Of a stretch of 64,000 nt of DNA, positions 13,869 through 51,012 are shown one piece after another. Origin of the DNA: Rhizophagus irregularis (lineage: Eukaryota); NCBI RefSeq assembly GCF_026210795.1, contig NC_089430.1, positions 5,952,001 through 6,016,000 of the forward strand, in the 5' to 3' direction. Each line of letters begins with the position of its first letter. Positions within the stretch are counted from its first letter, which is position 1. Both the position numbers and the translations under genes were made by a program. Below the pieces are notes generated by a model that was not told where the DNA came from, ran no database searches, and saw nothing but the letters and a program-made list of their open reading frames with translations.

Positions 13869-14426
13869 TAGTGTTTCAATCCGCGGATAATCCATTATCC
13901 GTCAATCCGATCCGATTAATATCCGTCACCCGTCAATCTGATCCGTCTAATAAAATACAATCCGGATATCCGTAGTGACGGATTGAAAATTATCCGGATA
14001 TCCTCTGATAATCTAAATATATGGGAATTTACTACGATATTTCCAAAGTTTAAGTGGCCGAAGAACCGAAGGATCTAAAGAAGGATCTAAAGAAGAAAAA
14101 CGAAATTAGTGAAAGAAAAGAAGCGAAAAAGGAAATTAGAAAATATTAACCATCCGTTGTCTCCAAAGTCTAAGGACTTTAAAGAAGAAAAATGAAAAAA
14201 GTAACGGAAAAAAGAAATAAAAAAGTTAACCTAACTATTGTCTCCGAAGTCCAGGTGGTCGAAGAACGAAGGATCTAACGAAATTAGAAAAGCTGAAAAT
14301 AAAAAAAACTTTTTTCACACGATAATATCCGTTACGGATATCGTTTAAAAAATCCTATCCGGATAACCGTAAATGGCGGATATCCGTCCACGAATACGGA
14401 TTGCGGATAAACGGATTGAAACACTA
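13869..14426. mobile_element. hAT-type MITE with ATCCG subterminal repeats
   Basis: TIR tagtgtttcaatccg / cggattgaaacacta; many atccg/cggat motifs; TSD not clearly preserved. Confidence 0.7.
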
Positions 14427-24305: not shown

Positions 24306-27300
24306 ATGACTAGTGAAGAAAGGACTTTAGAGGAGTTATTAAGAGAAATTCTACGACTTAATTATGATAAGCCTAAAATTTGTGATTTAGTAAATGAAGG
24401 AATTTTGAGCGTTCAAGTAAATAAAGTTATGAAAGCTTTTGAAAATGATTCGGAAGTTTTTCCACAAGGAAATGAAATTAAGCATTGGAATAAAGTGAAT
24501 ATACGAAATTGGGCAGATTCTATAAAAGGAACAGAAATTACAAAGAATCCAGAGTTTTTAGAAGAAATGATAGCAGTTCTTAAGAGGACAAATTTCCTTT
24601 ATTGTAAGCATAATCTGAGAATAACACAAGTTTTAGCTATATTACTCTTTGTGTCACCAAATGAACAAGGAAGATTGTTACAAATATCAACAGGAGAAGG
24701 AAAGACTACCATATGTGCTATGCTCGCAAGTATTAAGGTATTGCAAGGAGAGAATGTGGATATAATAACAAGTTCCCCTATTTTAGCGAAAAGAGATGCT
24801 GAAGAGAGAGAAAGTTTCTATAAAATATTAGGAATCAGTTGTGGGTCTAATGAAGGCGAAGACTATTCATTAAGCATAGTAGATGGTCGTAATGGAATTC
24901 AATTAGAAACAAATAAGAACTGCTATTTTAAAAATATAGTATATGGGGATGTAAGCGAATTTCAGTTTGATTGGCTAAAACATGAACATAAGAAAATAGG
25001 TACTAAAGGAAATAGAGGGTTTGGTGTAGTAATTGTAGATGAAGTAGATACCATGATAATTGATGACTGTAGCAGGAGTGCAAGGTTAACAGGAGAACTG
25101 GCAGGGTTTGAATATTTAAATCCAGTATTTTGTGGGGTAGCAAATGAGTTAACTAGATTAAGCAAGCGAATAATACGGACAGAAGAGAATTTAATATATT
25201 TAGATGGTGAGTTCAAAGAAGGAGGAGAACTTATCTTAGGAGAAGAGATAAAATGCTATGAAATAAATAATTGGTATGAATTTATCTCTGAATATTTAAC
25301 AGAATTTACAATAAATATAATAAAAAAAAGGAAAATAGAACTGCCAGATTTTTTAAGAGATTTTTGTTTAAAGTCAGTAGAAGAGTTTGTTAAATCAGCA
25401 ATTGAAAGTTGGAATGTATATCAAGAGAAGATAGAATATCTAACAGTAAAAGGTAAAAATGAAAACTCGAATATTGCACCAGTTGACTATGAAAGCACGG
25501 GAATAGTGCAAGAGAATGAGACATTTTCTGATGGATTGCATCAATTTCTGCAGATAAAGCATGGGCTCAAACTTACACCTGAATCAGTAGCTACAAGCTT
25601 TGTTTCAAATATGGGATATTTTAAAAATATGGTGCTAAGATATATGGGTTAACAGGAACAATTGGATCTAAGGAGGACCAAGATATGTTATCCTCAATTT
25701 ATACAGTAGATTTTGGATTTATGCCAACATATAAAGCAAAAAAATTTAAAGAGTTAGAAGGGATAGTGACCAGTAATAAGAATGCATGGATTATGGAAGT
25801 AGTGAGTAATATAAAGCAAGAAGGAGAAAGAGGAAGAGCAGTACTAGTTATTTGCGAGACAATAGATAATGTAAAAACAATTTATGATATTCTAATAGAA
25901 GTTTATTCAACAAGGAAAATAAGGTTATATTCTAGAAATGATAATGATGAATGTTCAGCAGTAAAAGAAAGAGTTAACTCAGGAGATGTAATAATTGCAA
26001 CAAATTTAGCAGGAAGAGGAACAGATATCAAAACAAGTTTTAGCGTTGAAAAGAATGGAGGTTTACATGTAATAGTTACTTTTTTACCATCAAACTCAAG
26101 GGTAGAGGAACAAGCATTTGGGAAAACAGCAAGACAAGGAGCAAAAGGAACAGCCCAATTAATAATTAATAAAATATATACAGAAAACAAATTAAATATG
26201 ACTGGAATTTTAAGTAATATATATGAATTTAAGCAACTTAGAGATAGTAAAGAATATATAAGAATACAAACAGTTAAATTATATAAGGCAAAAGAAGTTG
26301 AATTAAGAGATAAATTATTTGAAATATATTTAGAGGTTGATAATGATTTACGAGAGATAGAAGAAAATAAGAAGAAAGAAAAGACGATATTAGACATATT
26401 AGAAAAAGATAAGAGATATAAATATAAATTACTGCAAGTAGAAGAAAAATGGGGATTAGAGCTAAAAATATTTGAAAAAACATTAGCTTATGATAGCAAA
26501 ACAAGAGAAGAACTAAAACAAGTAGCGAAAAAATTTGGATTTAAACCATATGGTAATAATGAAGCAATGTTTAGTTTATATAAGGCAATTAGTGTAAGTT
26601 TAGGAAATAAAGCAAGTAGTGAGCAGTTGCTATGGCTAGCAGTAGGTTATTTTTTAGATAATTTTACTGGAATGTATTACCGTAATGATATTAATTTTTA
26701 TAAAAAAGCTGCAAAAAGTTTTAGTGATAAAAAGGCATTAAAAAGTTTGACTTCAGTATTAGGAAGAAATATAGTAATAATAAGTAGCAATCAAGAAAAT
26801 TTGATGATTTACAAAATAAAGGATGTGAAAGAAACGATTTATATAGGTTTAGAAGATGGAAATAAAAAATATTTTAAAAATTATAGACCTTTAAGAAAAG
26901 TTTCGTATAATTATGATATAATAGAAAAGTATTCAATAAAAGTAGAAGTAAAAGCTACTGAGTATAAAAGTATTACAAATCTTTTTGAAAGAAAAGATTT
27001 AAAAAAATTGATAGATGAAATTATAAAACAAAAGTCAAAAGAAGTAGAAGAATGCAATCTAGCAAAAAGAAATGAGGGAATTAGTTATTTTAAAAATTTC
27101 TTTAATAAAATAAAAGAAGAATATAAAACAGGCAATAAAATAATGAAAAACTCAGCATATATGGTACAAATGGGAATTGAAAAGTCAGAAGTCAAAGAAA
27201 AAATAGATATATTAGAAGGTGCATGTAATTTAGAAAAAATATATTCATTGCCAGCACGTTATAATTTAGCTCATGCAGTAATTGAAGAACAGAAAGGAAA

Positions 27301-38659: not shown

Positions 38660-41600
38660 TTTCGAAGGTATACATATACCTTCAAATTTTCACTTCTTTT
38701 AACAAAACGTTTCACTAATGTTTTCGTTTTTTTCTTTTTTAGATTCAAGACACCCATTTAAAAGGCTCGAATGGGCTTCTAAAGTACAGAAACCCCAAAG
38801 ATTCCTAAGTACGAATTCTTTGGAGTTTTTTTTTATATTTTTAATATGAACGGTTACTAACCATTTTTTTTTTACTTTTTTTTTAGATTTGGCTATTTGG
38901 GTGGGTTTCCGAAGTATAGAACCCCCAAAGATTCGTAAGTACAAATTCTTTGGAGTTTTTTTTTATATTTTTAATATGAACGGTTACTAACCATTTTTTT
39001 TTACTTTTTTTTTAGATTTGGCTGTTTGGGTGGGTTTCCGAAGTATAGAAACCCCAAAGATTTGTAAGTACGAATTCTTTGGAGTTTTTTTTTTATATTT
39101 TTAATATGAACGGTTACTAACCATTCTTTTTTTACTTTTTTTTTAGGTTCGGCTGTTCGGGTGGGCTTCCGAAATATAGAAACTCCAAAGATTTGTAAGT
39201 ACGAATTCTTTGAAGTTTTTTTTATATTTTTAATATGAACAGTTACTAACTGTTCTTTTTTTACTTTTTTTTTAGGTTCAGCCGTTCAGGTAGGCTTTTG
39301 AAGTATAGAAACCCCAAAGATTCGTAAGTACAAATTCTTTGGAGTTTTTTTTTATATTTTTAATATGAACGGTTAATACTAACCATTCTTTTTTATTTTT
39401 CTTTTTTAGGTTCGGCTTTCAAGTGACTTCTGAAAAATGGAAAAAACCAAGTTTCGTAAGTTCGAAACTTGGTTATTTTTTTTGTTTATTTTTAATATTA
39501 TGAACAGTTATTAATAACCGTTCTTTTTCTTTTTTTTTTTTAGGATCGGATGTTCGAAGGACGGAAAAATTCCAAGATTCGTAAGAATCTTGGATTTTTT
39601 TTATTTTTTTTAAAAAAAATATTATGAACGGTTACTAATAAAGCTCCGAACAGGTCGGTTTGGTCCGAATTATAGACGGTTTGGATTAGAGCCAAAATCC
39701 GTAAGAACCGAACTGAAAAACTGGCAGTTCGGTTCAATTTAATCCGATTTTTATAAAAATGCGAAAAATCAAATAGCCGGCCATCTAGTGATCGTATAAA
39801 GTCGAGCCATATTTCATTGGATTCGTCTCGATGAGACGCGACGAATGGTGCTAAGATCATGTCTCTAGCATCGATAGATCACACGTTAATCCACGCTAAA
39901 TGATTTATAAATAATTGGAATTAGCAAGCTATCTATCGGTGCTAGAGACATGATCTTAGCACCATTCGACGCGTCTCAGTGAGACGAATCCAATGAATAT
40001 AAATTCGTTCATGTACGACTACTGGATGGCGAATAATATCAAGTTTAGCATTTTTTAAAAAATTTCGAGCATTAAAAATTAAAAATTCCGATACATGAAT
40101 TTATTCGTCGTCCAATGGTCGTACAAATATGAATTATGACTCATTGGATTCGTCTTGATGAGACGAGTCGAATAGTGGTGAGATCATGTCTCTAGCATTA
40201 ATAGATCGTAAGTTAATTCACGCTAAATAATTTATAAAAAATTGGCATTAGCAAGCTTCTATCGATGCTAGAGACGTGATCTTGCCACCATTCGACTCGT
40301 CTTATCGAGACGAATCCAATGAGTCCTAATTCATATTTGTACGACCATTGGATGACGAATAAATTCATGTATCGGAATTTTTAATTTTTAACGCTCGAAA
40401 TTTTTAAAAAAATGCGAAACTTGATATTATTCGCCATCCAGTAGTCGTACACGAACGAATTTATATTCATTGGATTTGTCTCACTGAGACGCGTCGAATG
40501 GTGCTAAGATCATGTCTCTAGCACCGATAGATAGCTTGCTAATTCCAATTATTTATAAATCATTTAGCGTGGGTTAACGTGTGATATATCAATGCTAGAG
40601 ACATGATCTTAGCACCATTCATCGCGTCTCATCGAGACGAATCCAATGATATATGGCTCGACTTTGTACGATCACTAGATGGACGGCTATTCAATTTTTC
40701 GCATTTTTATAAAAAATCGGATTAAACTGAACCGAACCGCCAGTTTTTTGGTTCTAATACCCGAACTGAACCGAACCGAATTTTGAGCCAGTTTCGGATT
40801 GGTTCCCTGGTTTAGCCCGAACCGTTCGGAGTTTTAGTTACTAATAACCGTTCTTTTATTTTTTATAGATTCGGGTAGACTTCCGTGTTCTGAAGAACGG
40901 GAAAATTCCAAAGATTCGTAAGAATCTTGGATTTTTTTTTTATTTTTTTTTAAAAAAATATTATGAACGGTTACTAATAACCATTCTTTTCTATTTTTTA
41001 GGATCTAGTGGACTTCCAAAGAAAGGAAAACCAAGAAATCAAGATTAATAAGTAAGTACGAATCTTGGTTTAATTTTTTTGTTTTTTTTTTAATATATGA
41101 ACGGTTCTAACCGTTCTTTTCTTTTTTTTTAGGATCTGGTGGGCTTCCAAAGAATGAAAACCCAAAGATTCGTAAGTACGAATCTTTAATTTTTGGTTTT
41201 ATTTATTATTATTACGAATGGTTTACTAACCATTCTTTCTTTTTTTTTATAGATTCGGATGGGCTTCTGAAGAACGAAAACCCAAAGATTCGTAAGTACG
41301 AATCTTCAATTTTTTTTTTATTTATTATTATTACGAATGGTTTACTAACCATTCTTTCTTTTTTTTTATAGGTTCTGGTGGGCTTCCGAAGAATGAAAAT
41401 CCAAAGATAAAGATTCGTAAATACGAATCTTTATATATTTTTTATTTTTATTTTTTTATTATTTTGGAACGGTTTACTAACCGTTCCTTTCTTTTTTTAT
41501 AGGTTTGGGCGGGCTTTTGTGTGAAAAAACCAAGATTCGTAAGTACGAATCTTGGTTTAATTTTTTTAATTTTTTTTTTAATATTAATGAACGGTTACTA

Positions 41601-42200
41601 ATAACCGTTCTTTTTTTTTAGGATCGGGTGGAGTGGACTTCTGACCTTCGGGAAAAGAAGAACCAAGATTCGTAAGTACAAATCTTGGTTTATTTTTTTT
41701 GATTTTTTTTTTTTAATATTAATGAACAGTTACTAATAACCGTTCTTTCTTTTTTTTTAGGCTTTGGGTTGGCTTCTGATCTTTGGAAAAGTGAAACCAA
41801 GATTCGTAAATATAAATCTTGGTTTATTTTTTTTGATTTTTTTTTTTTAATATTAATAAACGGTTACTAATAACCGTTCTTTCTTTTTTTTTAGGCTTTG
41901 GGTTGGCTTCCGATCTTCAGAAAAGTGGAACCAAGATTCGTAAGTACGAATCTTAGTTTATTTTTTTTGATTTTTTTTTTAATATTATTATGAACAGTTA
42001 CTAATAACCGTTCTTTTCTTTTCTTTTTAGGTCTCAGGTGTCTCAGGTGGCTTCTGAAGAACGAAAAAAACCAAAGATTCGTAAGTAAGTACGAATCTTG
42101 GTTTTTTTTCTTATTTTTTTAATATTATAAACGGTTACTAACCGTTCTTCTTTTTTTTTATAGGTTCAGGTGGATTGCTAAAGAACAATCAAAGATTCGT
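38660..42200 (+). repeat. Tandem array of ~18 mini-exon (mostly 36-50 nt) + intron (~75-90 nt) units
   Basis: Repeating ttttag|exon...aagattc|gtaagt...tactaac...ttttag with ~120-135 bp period. Confidence 0.88.
39639..40836. mobile_element. hAT-type non-autonomous element containing a ~1-kb palindrome
   Basis: TIR taaagctccgaac / gttcggagtttta; perfect 8-bp TSD gttactaa. Confidence 0.85.
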
Positions 42201-43228
42201 ATATACGAATACATGAATCATGTAATTGTGGAATTGTATTTGAATTAGCAATATTTTTTGTAAATTAGATAGATAATGCAATAATAATAATATAATTATA
42301 AAGTATTTAAGCATTAATAAATACATTTATTTAATAAATTTGATAAAAAAATCAAAATAAATTCATAAATAGATGGGTTGTTATTAGACCATAATTCGGC
42401 TTAAAGTTTTAATGTCGAATATTGGTCAATTTAAACCTGAATAATGGTTGAATAATTTGTCCAAATTTGGGACGATTGGCACCCTAAATGCGTCCAAAAA
42501 TTTGACCTCAATTTGACACAGATTAGATCATCATTTGACCTATATTCGACCTGGTCAAATTTAAGTCAAATTGTTCTTTTTCGACTAGTGTAGTTTTTCA
42601 AATGTTAAGGTTCATTTTTTACCACCAAATACAACATCATTTCTTCAACCATTAGATCAAGGTATTATTTATAGTTTAAAAGCACAATATCGCAAATTGC
42701 TATGTCAAAATCATATTCAAGCTTATGATTTTTATGAAGAGGGAGACCCCATTCCACCCCCAATTAATATTTTTGATTCAATCAGTTTAATTGCTGATGC
42801 CTGGAAAAAAGTATCTAAAAAAACAATTCTTAACAGTTGGGCTAAAGCTGAAATCCTTCCCAATAATATGGAAGATTCTGAATATTCAGACAATTCCGAT
42901 TATGAAGAAGATAATATGGACATGAATTACAATTATTAATTGATGAGTTAGGATTCATAGATCCTTTAGCTATGAATGACTATATTAATATTGATAATAG
43001 AGCATCTGCTGAAGAGAAATTATCATTACAAGAAATTGTTGACGTTGTAAAGGGAACAAATGAAAGGGAAATTGAAGAGGAAAAGAAGCAAGATGAAATC
43101 TCTACAATAGTTGCGTTAAATAGCATTGAAAATGTAATTAAATATATTCAACAAAAAGATTTAGAAATTGGTAATTTAGAAATGAAAAATTTAATTAAAT
43201 TGAAAAAAAGGATCTTTTTTGATAATAT

Positions 43229-45471: not shown

Positions 45472-45905
45472 GTAAATTCTTGTTGATCATTATTATATCG
45501 ATTATAGTTATAGATGCTGTCAGAATTATTTTTACGGTTATAGCATATGCCGTAATGCTATAATTAAATGCCATAAATCGTAAATACCGTGATGCTGTAA
45601 TGCCATAATGCCGTAATTTAATTTAACGCCGTAATGTTGTAAATAAATATGCTGTAAATGAATAAGACTAAACTTAATTTCAGCTAAGTTCGCAATGCTG
45701 GATCAATTTTTTTTCATGTTTTATCACGTGACATTACACGGATTTCAAAAAAATGAAATTTTGTCCCTCAATAAAATTGAATAATGAGTTGCACAAAGTT
45801 ACACAAGATTCCAAAAAAGAAAATATTCATATCAATCATTTAGCATTTGTAAAGGTCATGTGATCGTGATTAATTATAACCTGATACCTCATCATTCGAC
45901 CAGTA

Positions 45906-48330
45906 GTTTAGTAACGTTTCTTAAAGAATATAATAAAAAAATCTACTCCCTAACCTCCTTTTTTACCTAAATTCCAAAGTCCAGTTCGTATTATTTGTCT
46001 GGCAACCTAAAAAAAAGAAAGAGAAGCGTTAGAACGTTTCTCTTAAAAAAAAATATTATTCCTCCTCTCCTTCACTTTACATAATTCCAAAGTCTGGTTT
46101 GTAGTTTTCGTCCAGCAACCTAAAAAAGAAGCATTTAGTAATGTAATAAAATAAAAAAAACCCACTTCCTGACTCCTCTTTTACCTAAATTCCAAAGTCT
46201 GGTTCGTATTATTCGTCTGGCAACCTAAAAAAAAGAAAGAGAAGCGTTAGAACATTTCTCTTAAAAAAATAAAATATTATTCTTCCTCTCCTTCACTTAC
46301 ATAATTCCAAAGTCCAGGTCGTATTATTCGTCTGGCAACCTAAAAAAAAGAAAAAGAGAAGCGTTAGAACGTTTCTCTTAAAAAAAAATATGTTATCCCA
46401 GTTTGTAGATATGATATTGACCGATTGATGATCAATTTCTTTTCCTGCAATTTGTGTCATTCGTGAATTGGGTGAGATGTGATCCGTAATCTAGATCAGG
46501 ATAATCTGATTTGGAAAAAAAAATTTCTTTTTTGTGAACAAAAAAAATTGCCGGACTTTGAGAATTGAAGTAAGAGAGGAGTTTTTCGTTGTTTTTTTTT
46601 AATAAATTAAACTAATTTATTTTTCTCTTTTGTAGGGTTACTGAATGAAAACTAGACTCTTGGAATTGAGGTAAGGGAGGGCTGAGGGAGAAGGTTTTTC
46701 GTTTTTTTTTAATATATTTTTTTCTTTTTTGTAGTGTTGCCAGATGAAAAATATTGCCGGACTTTTGGAATTGAAGTAAGAGAAGGCTGAGGGAAAGCTT
46801 TTTCATTGTTTTTTTAATAAATTAAACTAATTTGTTTTTTTCTTTTTTATAGAGTTGCCAGACGAAAACATTGCCAGATCTTTGGAATTGAAGTAAAAAA
46901 GGGCTGAGGGAAAGCTTTTTCATTGTTTTTTAATAAATTAAACTAATTTATTTTTTTCTGTTTGATAGGGTTGCCAGACAAAAAACATTGCCGGACTTTT
47001 GGAATTAAGGTAAGGGAAGGTCGGGAAAAGGATTTCATGATTTTTTTTTTTAAATAATTTAATTTATGGTTTTTCTTTTTTTAAGGTTAGCCAGACAAAA
47101 AATATGATCAGATTTTTGGAATTGAGGTAAAGGAGGACTGAGCAGAATCTACTTTTTTGTAGAGTTGCTGGATGAAAATATACTAGTGTTTCGTTCCTTT
47201 AAACTAATTTGAATCTTGATGAAAAATAGAGTTGTTTCTTTTCTAAGCAGATCCAAGGCATTGGAAAGTTTGGCTGGAACCTGGAATTTTTTAGACGTTT
47301 CTGGATCATTGATTTCGGTGGAACAGAGCAATTTTTTTTTTTAAAAAAAATTTTTTTATAACGAAATGCTTACTAACGTTTCAATTTTTTTTTTTATAGT
47401 TGAAGTATTCAAATTCGGTGAGCATTGTTTTTTATCTTTAATTCTTTTAATGAATAATCCCTAAAGGTTTATTCTTTTTTTTTCTTCTGTAGACGGCTGG
47501 TGCTTTGGAACATTTGGATGCATGTGAATCGGTAAGGAAGGTTTTTTGAATAATGAAGCGATACGGTTACTAATTATTTCATTTTTTTTTTTGTAGATAG
47601 TGATATTGGAATTCGGTGAATTTATTATTCAAAATATATTGTGAAGGCAATTGGATGATGATTATCTAACGAAGATTATGTTATAGAGTCTTTGAACAAA
47701 AAAATTTAAAGGTTCTTAAGATCTCCTTAAACGTAAGTATCGTTATGTTTATTTTTTTTTAAAAAAAAAATAATCTTTTTTAATGAATCGTTTATTAAAA
47801 TGTTTCGTTTATTTCATTTTTATAGACGACCAATTCTTCATTATCTTTGGACATGGATTTTGGTAAGGGGTGAATATTCTTGGATTATTTATTTAATTAA
47901 ATAATTACTAATGTTTGTTTGTTTAAAAATCTTTTAGACAGCTCTTCTACTCTTTAAACGTGGGAATTTGGTGAGTGTGATGTTTCTTTTAATTTTTTAT
48001 TCTATCTTTTAAAGGACATTAACTAATTTCTTTTTTTTAGATGGTTTGTTTCTTAGCTCTTTGGACGTGAAATTCGATGAGAACATTCCTTTAACAAGAC
48101 GTTTTGTATTCCAGGTCTTTAGATGAGTGAAAACTTTCGTAGGGATTAGGCCATCGAATATAAATCTACTCCACTTTTCCAACACTTTTGCCGTCTTTTC
48201 CATTCCTTTTCCATCCCTTTCCACACTTTCGTCTCCCCTTTTCCATTCTTTTTTCATTTCCATTTCTTTTATCTTTTTTAGATGACTTCTCAGCCCTTTG
48301 GATATGGCATTCTGGTAAGTTTTGTAATGG
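45906..48330. repeat. Second, divergently oriented mini-exon/intron arrays (minus 45906-46390, plus 46530-48330)
   Basis: ag|gttgccagac...ggactttggaattta g|gtaa units on both strands with ctaac/ctaat branch sites. Confidence 0.7.
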
Positions 48331-48657
48331 TTCTGTAAGGTAAAATCAAATATTAGTCCAAGATGGTTTTCAGTATATAATAAGGTAAAATTGTTTATAT
48401 TTCCGAACCTGTATAATATTTAGTCATTAGCGGATTAGATTTTTTCAATAACGGATTTAATAACATGTTTTAAAATATTTTTTTTTATACAGTTTTTATA
48501 AACTGGTTCAAAACTCTTTAAACTCCATATGGGAAGAGTTATATAGGATATCTGATGGAAAATTTTTTTTAAGAGATTTTCTAAGAGTTCATATGGGAAG
48601 GGTTCGTATGGGATATCTGATAGAAAATTTTTTTTTTTGAGAGATTTCCTAAGATTC

Positions 48658-51012
48658 CACTGGTCGAATGATGAGGTATCAGGTTATAAGCTATCATGAT
48701 GTATCGGTCAAATAGGACCCCGAACAATATATATAAAGGTAGGTTTTGAGTTTGCTTAACCAACATATAAAAATTTTTCCTATGTGAGATTTATTATTGC
48801 TTATTTGATACCATAATTTTTAAATAGTCAGATATAATTATGCGTAGCAGAGTATTAAATTATTAATAGTCAGATATATATTTGCGTAGCAGGATAGATT
48901 TTTTTAATATATATATATAATATAATATATATTTACATTTTTCACATTAAAAAAATTTAATAAAATATGTAAACAAAGTTATAAACATGTTTGTGTAAAA
49001 AAAATTTACTATTTTTAATACAAAGAATAAGTTAATTGTATACGTAATACAGGAATCATTTTTAGACGTGATTGTGTAACGTGTTTTTGATAAAACAAAT
49101 ACGCGTCCGCGTAACATTAAAATTATAAATTATATACGCGTCCATGTAACAGTAAAAAAATATATATTAAAAATGAGAGCAAGAAAAATAAGTGTTTTTC
49201 TGTTTTTTTATAATTTTACACTATAATTTTTGTAATAATCAGTAAAAGTTATTTCATTTTTACTTAGAAAATTTTTTAAAAATATTTTTTTTGACAAATT
49301 TTACAGTAAATTTTAAAAATAAAAATTCCGCGTATTGGTGGCGTTACAAAAAACATGAATAAATCCATAAATATCTATTCAATCGTGATAAAAATTTATA
49401 TGTAAGTAGATTCGAACCTGCTGAACAACTTTACTTAAGAAGGTTTTGGATGTTTCCTTTGACTAAAGTGCCTAAATTACGCTCTGAAGTCACAGAACAG
49501 ATATACGAAATATTAATAAGAAACATTTATAAGTTGTAATATTACAAAAAAATAATAATAGCTTTATCCATACTTTATTTCAAAAATTTTTGTTTTTTTA
49601 GTTTTTTTTATATACATATTTTATAAAAAAAATTATATATAAATATATATATGTCATAAAATAAATTGCTTAGCAGTGTAAAAAATTTATGGGTTAGATA
49701 AAAGTTTGCTTAGCAGACATGAAAAATATTTGCTTATTGACCTTAGTAAATTTTGAATTTTTTATCTGACCTATATATATATTGTTCGGGGTCCTGGTCA
49801 AATATCAGAAATCTGATATGGCATGATAGGTATATTGGTATCCGATATTATTTATAAAATTATATCAGAAAATTTTAATATACCTATCAGTAATCCGATA
49901 GGTTATTGATATTTCTAAAAAACAATTGATTCATATCAGGAAAAGATTGACTCAAATTGAATGATTATCTGATTATTTTTTTCCAGAAACGAATTACAAA
50001 AAAAATAAACTCTTTCATGTAACATTTTATTTTTTTTTTCCAACAAAAAGTATCATTTATATTTTAAGAAACAATGACTGAACGGTCAGTCTTTCAGTAG
50101 ACTTATAGGAATGCAAGAAGTGCAGAAGGTTAATATATTTTTTGTTTTTTTTTTCTTTTTCTTTTTTCTTTATTTTTTTCACCTTATTCTTATTTCTTTA
50201 GGGATGAGTCTTTTCTCTTGGAATGGCGATTTTGGTAACTACTGAGAATGCAAAAGATGCAGAAGGTTAATATATTTCTTTTTTTTTCATTTTTTTTTTT
50301 AATTTTATTGTTTTTTTCTTTACTTATTTAATTCTTATTTCTTTAGGAATGGGTCTCTTCTCTTGGAATGGCAATTTGGTGATTTCTAAAAATGTAAAAG
50401 ACGCGAAAAGTTAGTACTTAGTATATTTTTTTCATTTTCATTTTAATTTTATTGTTTTTTTCTTTACTTACCTAATTCTTATTTCTTTAGGAACAGGTCT
50501 CTTCTCTTGGAACGGCAATTTTGGTAATTTCTAAGAATGTGAAAGATGCGGAAAGTTAGTATATTTTTTTCATTTTCTTTTTTTAATTTTATTGTTTTTT
50601 CTTTACTTACCTAATTCTTATTTCTTTAGGAACGGGTCTCTTCTTTCGGGATAGTGATTGGGAATAGAGGTAAATGTGAAGTGGCTGTGTGTAGGTCAGT
50701 GTATTTATTGTAATTAAGAGACGTTCTCTTCTTTTTGTAGAACATTATTAATCAAGCAATTTAGACTCAGATTGATTCGACTCATCAACTCGTTTTGGAG
50801 CACTACTGCTTCAGTTCTGATTTTTGGGTTTGGATATATAGGTGAGTTTTGAAGAGAACTTTAAAAAATTTTTTTTAAAAAAATTTATTTAACTTTTTTT
50901 TCTTTTATTTTGTAGGTTTCAGCTTCAGTTTTTGGGTGTTGGATAGGTGAGCGAAGCTTTGAAATTTTAAAAACCTTATTTTTTTTTAAAGTTTATTTAA
51001 TTTTTTTTCTTT
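48658..51012 (+). mobile_element. Left part of a CACTA-type element with a third mini-exon/intron array (50040-51010)
   Basis: Begins cactggtcgaatgatgaggtatcaggttata (inverted copy at 45876-45905); repeats tctttag|gaa..gtctcttctcttggaa...gcggaa|gttagt. Confidence 0.65.
48714..49795. mobile_element. Non-autonomous AGGACCC-TIR (P-like) element
   Basis: TIR aggaccccgaacaatatatata / tatatatattgttcggggtcct; perfect 8-bp TSD ggtcaaat. Confidence 0.88.

Follow-up and report, generated by a model that had tools for sequence, protein, structure and literature searches.

A tandem array of short non-coding exons and introns in Rhizophagus DNA, apparently an undescribed variant of a transposon-associated repeat

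Layout of the array

The stretch of DNA analysed here (64 kb in length, hereafter the window) is transposon-dense, AT-rich and fungal. An intact guanine deaminase gene at 6202-7683, the sole clear housekeeping gene within it, shows 93-100% identity to R. irregularis proteins, and the window is therefore Rhizophagus (irregularis-like) DNA. A large SecA-like helicase frame, made of two overlapping frames (Pfam SecA_DEAD and P-loop_SecA), lies at 24306-28933. At least four separate exon-intron arrays are found in the window. The array described here occupies 45906-48657 and is built of tandem units of about 117 bp, each consisting of a 35-41-nt non-coding exon and a 64-77-nt GT-AG intron. Four exons lie on the minus strand; five, and then about ten diverged ones, lie on the plus strand, followed by a terminal exon with 63/64-bp repeats. 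The tandem units thus form opposite-facing exon arrays on both strands around a core at 46390-46570, as an earlier note on this DNA had described. The parts of the array are as follows.

45906-46339, minus strand: left arm; exons of 39-40 nt at 46301-46339, 46185-46224, 46081-46119 and 45967-46006; GT-AG introns of 76, 65 and 74 nt plus a truncated fourth; repeat period a 218-bp dimer
46340-46390, minus strand: 3' half of an intron alone, with branch site, T tract and AG
46390-46569, plus strand: core; likely the first exon of a rightward transcript, in a paralog
46570-47190, plus strand: right arm of units of about 117 bp, first donor at 46570; exons of 35-41 nt at 46636-46670, 46735-46775, 46853-46892, 46969-47009 and 47086-47126, plus a decayed sixth
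47248-48314, plus strand: about ten diverged short exons with a TTGGA..GGAATT-type end in common
48493-48657, plus strand: probable terminal exon carrying tandem repeats of 63/64 bp, acceptor at 48492; truncated by the next element

DNA contigs of sequencing run X1, which is possibly the source sample itself, cover most of 45655-48485 (seven pieces listed, with 0-1 substitutions each), and the array sequence is genuine. All nine unit exons keep the acceptor AG and the donor-side GTAA (9/9 for each). This figure is a direct count, the multiple alignment having offset the arms by one column and not being used for the splice columns of this array. The invariant exon columns number 15 of 41, a difference (about 0.018) that carries an ascertainment bias because the units were identified partly through their splice motifs. 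The branch motif has gone from two of the five right-arm introns, which are otherwise furnished with a U2-type donor, T tract and AG. The exon pattern gave 5 matches against 0.00 expected. Together with an exon-exon junction found in RNA from a paralog, the kept splice dinucleotides bear out the exon-intron reading of the sequence. The terminal exon is indicated by read joints that step back by 63/64 bp and by further joints to 48592.

A protein-coding repeat gene was rejected, because exon lengths of 35-41 nt are out of frame and the longest ATG frames in the rows spliced in silico reach 5 and 44 amino acids. Exact protein look-up returned no match. Rfam likewise gave 0 matches at the gathering threshold, on which ground a known non-coding RNA or snoRNA host was rejected.

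The exons of the left and right arms are homologous. In inverted orientation the two arms are about 70% identical over 430 nt, and the divergent arms do form the imperfect inverted repeat that had been claimed. They fall into separate clades (support 0.993), so that each arm expanded after their split; for the same reasons a recent inverted duplication was rejected. The exons were also said to be unrelated to those of another array of the window (array 1), and we found no relation for either the left (p=0.31) or the right arm (p=0.08). The diverged downstream exons are weakly related to the exons of both arms and to those of array 3 (p=0.003 in all three comparisons).

Core, copies and transcripts

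Many dispersed paralogs of the array exist, 84-95% alike and differing mostly by transitions. At least half of the words of the stretch occur in each of 14 sequencing runs, which are labelled with three organisms or as soil (runs X15 and X17-X21 were excluded from all counts). Scanning the sequence collections with the exon pattern returned five loci, one of them real (metagenome contig L002) and four chance matches; the core pattern returned one viral chance match (L001, 23 nt only) and 0 in metagenomes. On contig L002, 63/64-bp repeats and an AATAAA precede two unit exons and, before these, the right-hand half of the core; the 930 nt upstream contain no left arm. Also upstream of its array, at L002:735-920, TAACGAA/TTCGTTA motifs are repeated together with a CACTA pentamer, possibly an element end.

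About a quarter of each polyA RNA run was sampled. The reads are mostly paralogous, those at least 99% alike numbering 63 of 1340, 58 of 1182 and 45 of 871. Over position 46436 the paralog base was read in 28/28, 25/25 and 21/21 cases, so that no read over the core came from the present copy. An RNA joint from 46568 to 48592 with GTGTTGC between was seen in 14 and 16 reads with 22 different starts; it corresponds to the exon end GAATTGAG joined to the exon start TGTTGC, with the repeat behind it. This joined form occurred 0 times in the run X1 DNA contigs; 26 and 21 reads, and also one DNA contig, have an intron-bearing form (46740 to 48592). Reads over 46553, in the first plus-strand exon, carry the paralog base in 30 of 31 cases, with counts equal to those of the joint; 30 of the 31 run from that exon straight into the terminal exon. 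Hence it is likely that a paralog has a spliced plus-strand transcript of which the core is part. The junction could instead come from an intron-less DNA copy, as contigs drop rare variants. Most family reads retain introns, and 47 retain the acceptor before the terminal exon. Among the 15 joints listed for each of two read sets (15 of 44 and 15 of 61), none was a GT..AG or CT..AC skip for the present copy or the left arm; the method may miss some joints with 40-nt exons. The libraries look unstranded, first mates being split evenly between strands, so that the strand of a transcript cannot be read from them.

These observations bear on the proposal of a divergent promoter in the core. Two spliced non-coding RNAs would be driven outward from 46.4-46.5 kb by a true bidirectional promoter, in keeping with homologous arrays that diverge from the core on both strands, with intact splice sites in 4/4 left exons and with reads on both arms. 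The left arm, however, starts in mid-intron, and its first acceptor has no donor upstream on the minus strand at 46340-46640 (within 300 nt). L002 combines the right half of the core with an array that has no left arm, and two contigs of run X16 have different sequence left of 46424. Moreover, the unstranded paralog reads traverse the core with no peak of transcription starts in it, and no CT..AC skip is among the joints listed. Such a promoter is unlikely, though transcription leftward may still occur. Read-through over both arms might alternatively yield a fold-back RNA that is diced, and 313 of the 485 bases in the left arm do find right-arm partners in a predicted fold. Against it stand a longest exact complement of 14 nt, 21-mers within two mismatches numbering 6 of 465, and the lack of any core read from the present copy, which make this reading highly improbable.

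Hairpins at the branch sites

The three branch-site palindromes quoted in the earlier note are present in the sequence, mostly in more than one copy:

46354-46379, minus strand: quasi-palindrome, type 1; copies at 46019-46044 and near 46237-46262 (the latter differing by a further change)
46600-46622, plus strand: AT-only palindrome, type 2 (-2.5 kcal/mol); copies at 46816-46836 and 46931-46953
47364-47382, plus strand: hairpin, type 3, present once; folding energy -4.1 kcal/mol (MFE p=0.036), stem of 6 bp (stem p=0.445)

Hairpins were assessed by holding the branch 7-mer fixed and shuffling its flanks, with MFE p<0.05 as the threshold. Seven of the 16 introns of the array carry a significant hairpin (left arm 3/4, right arm 3/5, downstream 1/7). 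Elsewhere the same procedure gave 14/18 in array 1, 0/6 in array 3 and 0/2 in L002. Presumed coding-gene introns gave 3/16 by energy, one of the three being a mis-located non-intron, and 0/16 by stem length. These counts include acceptors 46342 and 40869, which are off by a few bases, control 25553, which is a non-intron, and control 20734, which is doubtful. In the whole region, 18 stems of at least 8 bp were found against 3.0 in shuffles, 5 of the 18 at branch points.

The branch-hairpin design thus exists in the introns that beat their shuffles but is not general, as 9/16 are without it. The seven significant hairpins are tandem copies of three motifs. The idea that the stem sequences differ from those of array 1 holds only for type 2, whereas a GAA(A)C(G)GTT-type 5' arm is common to the left-arm stem (type 1), the 47364 stem (type 3) and array 1. 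Most paralogs have a shortened type 2 stem, its innermost pair being altered: A46609T is found in about 95% of paralog reads (178/192 in run X22). The type 1 stem is more stable on the antisense strand (-13.6 kcal/mol) than on the splicing strand (-8.8 kcal/mol), its mismatch being G-U on the former and A-C on the latter. The hairpins are therefore real in the sequence, while the step from them to selection or a shared generating mechanism, rather than simple duplication, is a weak one for copies of three motifs. Both this claim and that of the bidirectional promoter are weaker than first put.

Several structures were seen in array 1 itself. Its units carry palindromes over both the donor and the branch site. 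In one unit, at 39410-39475, both arms of the donor palindrome appear to be altered by matching non-CpG substitutions. A 458-bp inverted repeat (95%) with nested inner repeats is inserted in array 1 at 39748-40715 and is a possible source of hairpin RNA.

Transposon ends and the origin of the array

Six CACT[AG]GTCGAA-like ends are found in the window. Those nearest to the array are the following.

45863-45905, minus strand: CACTA-type end, first base T not C, body leftward; 42 nt are 90% identical to 48659-48700
48658-48700, plus strand: CACTG end, body rightward and leading into array 3; interrupts a 63/64-bp repeat
51013-53556, minus strand: CACTG end at 51013, then a broken CACTA transposase gene (51795-53556) with a DUF4218 match (E=0.0015, short of the cut-off)

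The end at 45905 interrupts the last left-arm intron directly behind its branch site. Both this end and that at 48658 point outward from the array, and inward-facing CACT[AG] terminal repeats are absent at this locus. The features by which CACTA/CMC elements are tested include a 3-bp target site duplication (PMC8978399). None was found at the array, the two ends being flanked by GTT and TTC. A single element bounded by 45863 and 48700 was therefore rejected, given the outward-facing ends and the lack of a duplication, and we do not file the array as a member of CACTA/CMC. As neither inward ends nor a duplication was found for it, its CACTA membership would be by association. In another copy of the array, a CACTG end like that at 48658 is joined to 46695 in a DNA contig, which suggests repeated insertion into such arrays. 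A scan of viral sequences with the CACTA-end pattern gave 0 matches.

Other elements were noted around these ends. Array 3 (50050-51012) has exon-intron units of about 144 bp with GTTAAT/GTTAGT donors and without a branch hairpin, and lies behind the CACTG end at 48658. Within the element of that end, 48714-49795 is an insertion with 27-bp terminal repeats and a duplication of at least 8 bp. Array 1 belongs to a complete CACTA-type element (38300-42590) that sits in a pogo transposase gene and would serve better as a test case than the array described here. A lone CACAG end at 29223-29325 has a 41-bp subterminal inverted repeat, motifs of which recur in the core and in the loose end of a paralog. 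An element at 13869-14426, whose 15-bp terminal repeats are of a different type, carries a mini exon-intron array on the minus strand.

The region is probably a tandemly amplified array of non-coding exons and introns that serves as the internal transcription unit in a family of non-autonomous CACTA-type transposons of Rhizophagus. This reading draws on array 1, which is enclosed by the ends 38300/42590 with a 3-bp TAG duplication, on array 3 behind the 48658 end, and on the cognate PF02992 transposase at 53137-53556, which shows 95% identity to PF02992 proteins of R. irregularis and lies behind the CACTGGTCGAA end. It also draws on the resemblance of array 3 exons to the downstream exons and on L002, where the same modules occur without the left arm. 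It is weakened by the similar mini-array in an element with other ends, and by the weak likeness of the core to CACTA subtermini (among nine comparisons the best gave p=0.012 and 0.040, and the 29325 end gave p=0.144). Apart from the core, the CACAG end at 29325 is the one place where a 12-nt core motif occurs, within its subterminal inverted repeat (3 matches, 0.04 expected, with a pattern picked post hoc), and the loose end of a paralog matches the 29325 subterminus.

In such a family the transcript would run from the core as exon 1 through a variable number of exons of about 40 nt to the 63/64-bp-repeat terminal exon with its poly(A) signal. The exon-intron units may multiply by unequal crossing-over or slippage, and unequal exchange of whole units would hold the splice sites in register and carry the hairpins along. 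The left arm may be an older sister array that was joined on inverted and in mid-intron, giving the divergent layout. Later CACTA insertions would then have clipped both ends of the array, likely scrambling it. We infer that the branch hairpins are three ancestral quasi-palindromes copied by duplication, with little effect on splicing. They would be favoured by A-rich sequence before the branch site and T tracts after it, and perhaps tidied by template switching. If the introns have any use, it may be that the RNA of the element is processed like an ordinary spliced transcript.

A different view of the hairpins is that they are selected RNA structures which hold the branch sites, and in array 1 the donors too, and slow splicing, leading to spliceosome stalling, siRNA or conditional splicing. 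They are indeed centred on branch sites in three arrays and most frequent in array 1, where a palindrome also spans the donor, and the stem test found none in presumed coding introns; most family reads are unspliced, and in Cryptococcus poorly spliced transposon RNA is described as entering RNAi (PMC5851062). Paired changes in array 1 and in one left-arm type-b copy, which selection could explain, likewise weaken the by-product view. However, only three motifs are involved, and array 3, L002 and 6/7 downstream introns have none. The covariation of array 1 (three cells changed on both sides, 9/120 unpaired) was equalled by 40/500 shuffles and its variable stem pairs are CpG positions, while the present array offers too few variants for a covariation test. 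The mismatch of the left stem, moreover, is A-C on the splicing strand and G-U on the other. We consider selection of this kind unlikely. Still less likely is a host long non-coding RNA family, or a set of captured host UTR exons, into which CACTA elements were merely inserted. Both adjoining ends do look inserted into the array, polyA reads and a spliced junction exist, and the sequence recurs in runs under three organism labels and in soil. Against this, array 1 has ends on both sides with a target duplication and disrupts a gene for a pogo transposase, and the dispersed paralogs are many and diverged mostly by transitions, with no Rfam match.

Relation to known systems and meaning

The CACTA-type reading finds its nearest likeness in CACTA/CMC-EnSpm elements and SmTRC1 of Schistosoma. 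SmTRC1 is described as CACTA-type with many spliced transcripts that skip the transposase (PMC1636069); shared features are the CACTA-type ends, the 3-bp duplication (at array 1), inner tandem repeats and, probably, spliced non-transposase transcripts. Unlike in those elements, the repeat unit here is a whole intron plus a non-coding exon of about 40 nt, with no protein frame, and own ends of the array were not found. Fungal introner-like elements and symmetrical sister (stw)introns are also multi-copy U2-type introns with hairpin symmetry, but are reported as single insertions in unrelated exons with terminal inverted repeats of 45-55 nt (PMC8469720). The array introns always lie between homologous tandem exons and have only local stems of 6-11 bp. 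An introner-like element was rejected for this reason and for the lack of whole-intron symmetry (folding z between -2.5 and +0.5 in 11 introns). Short stems near fungal branch points are also described for the yeast intron zipper and downstream stems; those sit beside the branch site, whereas the array stems enclose it in or at the loop (PMC12350175). The SCANR pathway of Cryptococcus acts on transposon RNA with poorly spliced introns (PMC5851062); likening the array to it would be an analogy only.

In R. irregularis, roughly a quarter of the genome is given as unclassified repeat (PMC8647823), and two-thirds of its transposable elements had been unclassified (PMC11075540). We found no description of such arrays in the literature searched, although subscription papers and supplementary libraries of transposable elements may list the family. 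The main texts of PMC10234402, PMC11075540, PMC8647823 and PMC11952901, as far as available, make no mention of them; the word intron appears 0, 0 and 4 times in the last three, and never on such arrays. The array is a real and apparently undescribed variant of a transposon-associated repeat.

With at least four arrays in one 64-kb window, this type of array may be common. Such arrays would mislead gene prediction, and with their many near-replicate introns they lend themselves to tests of the importance of branch-site hairpins. A bolder, unlikely reading is that non-autonomous DNA transposons of arbuscular mycorrhizal fungi (AMF) repeatedly evolved cassettes of tiny non-coding exons, with splice signals in selected hairpins that set RNA splicing and so host acceptance or silencing. 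If true, it would explain part of the unclassified repeats of Rhizophagus and of its multi-copy orphan gene models.
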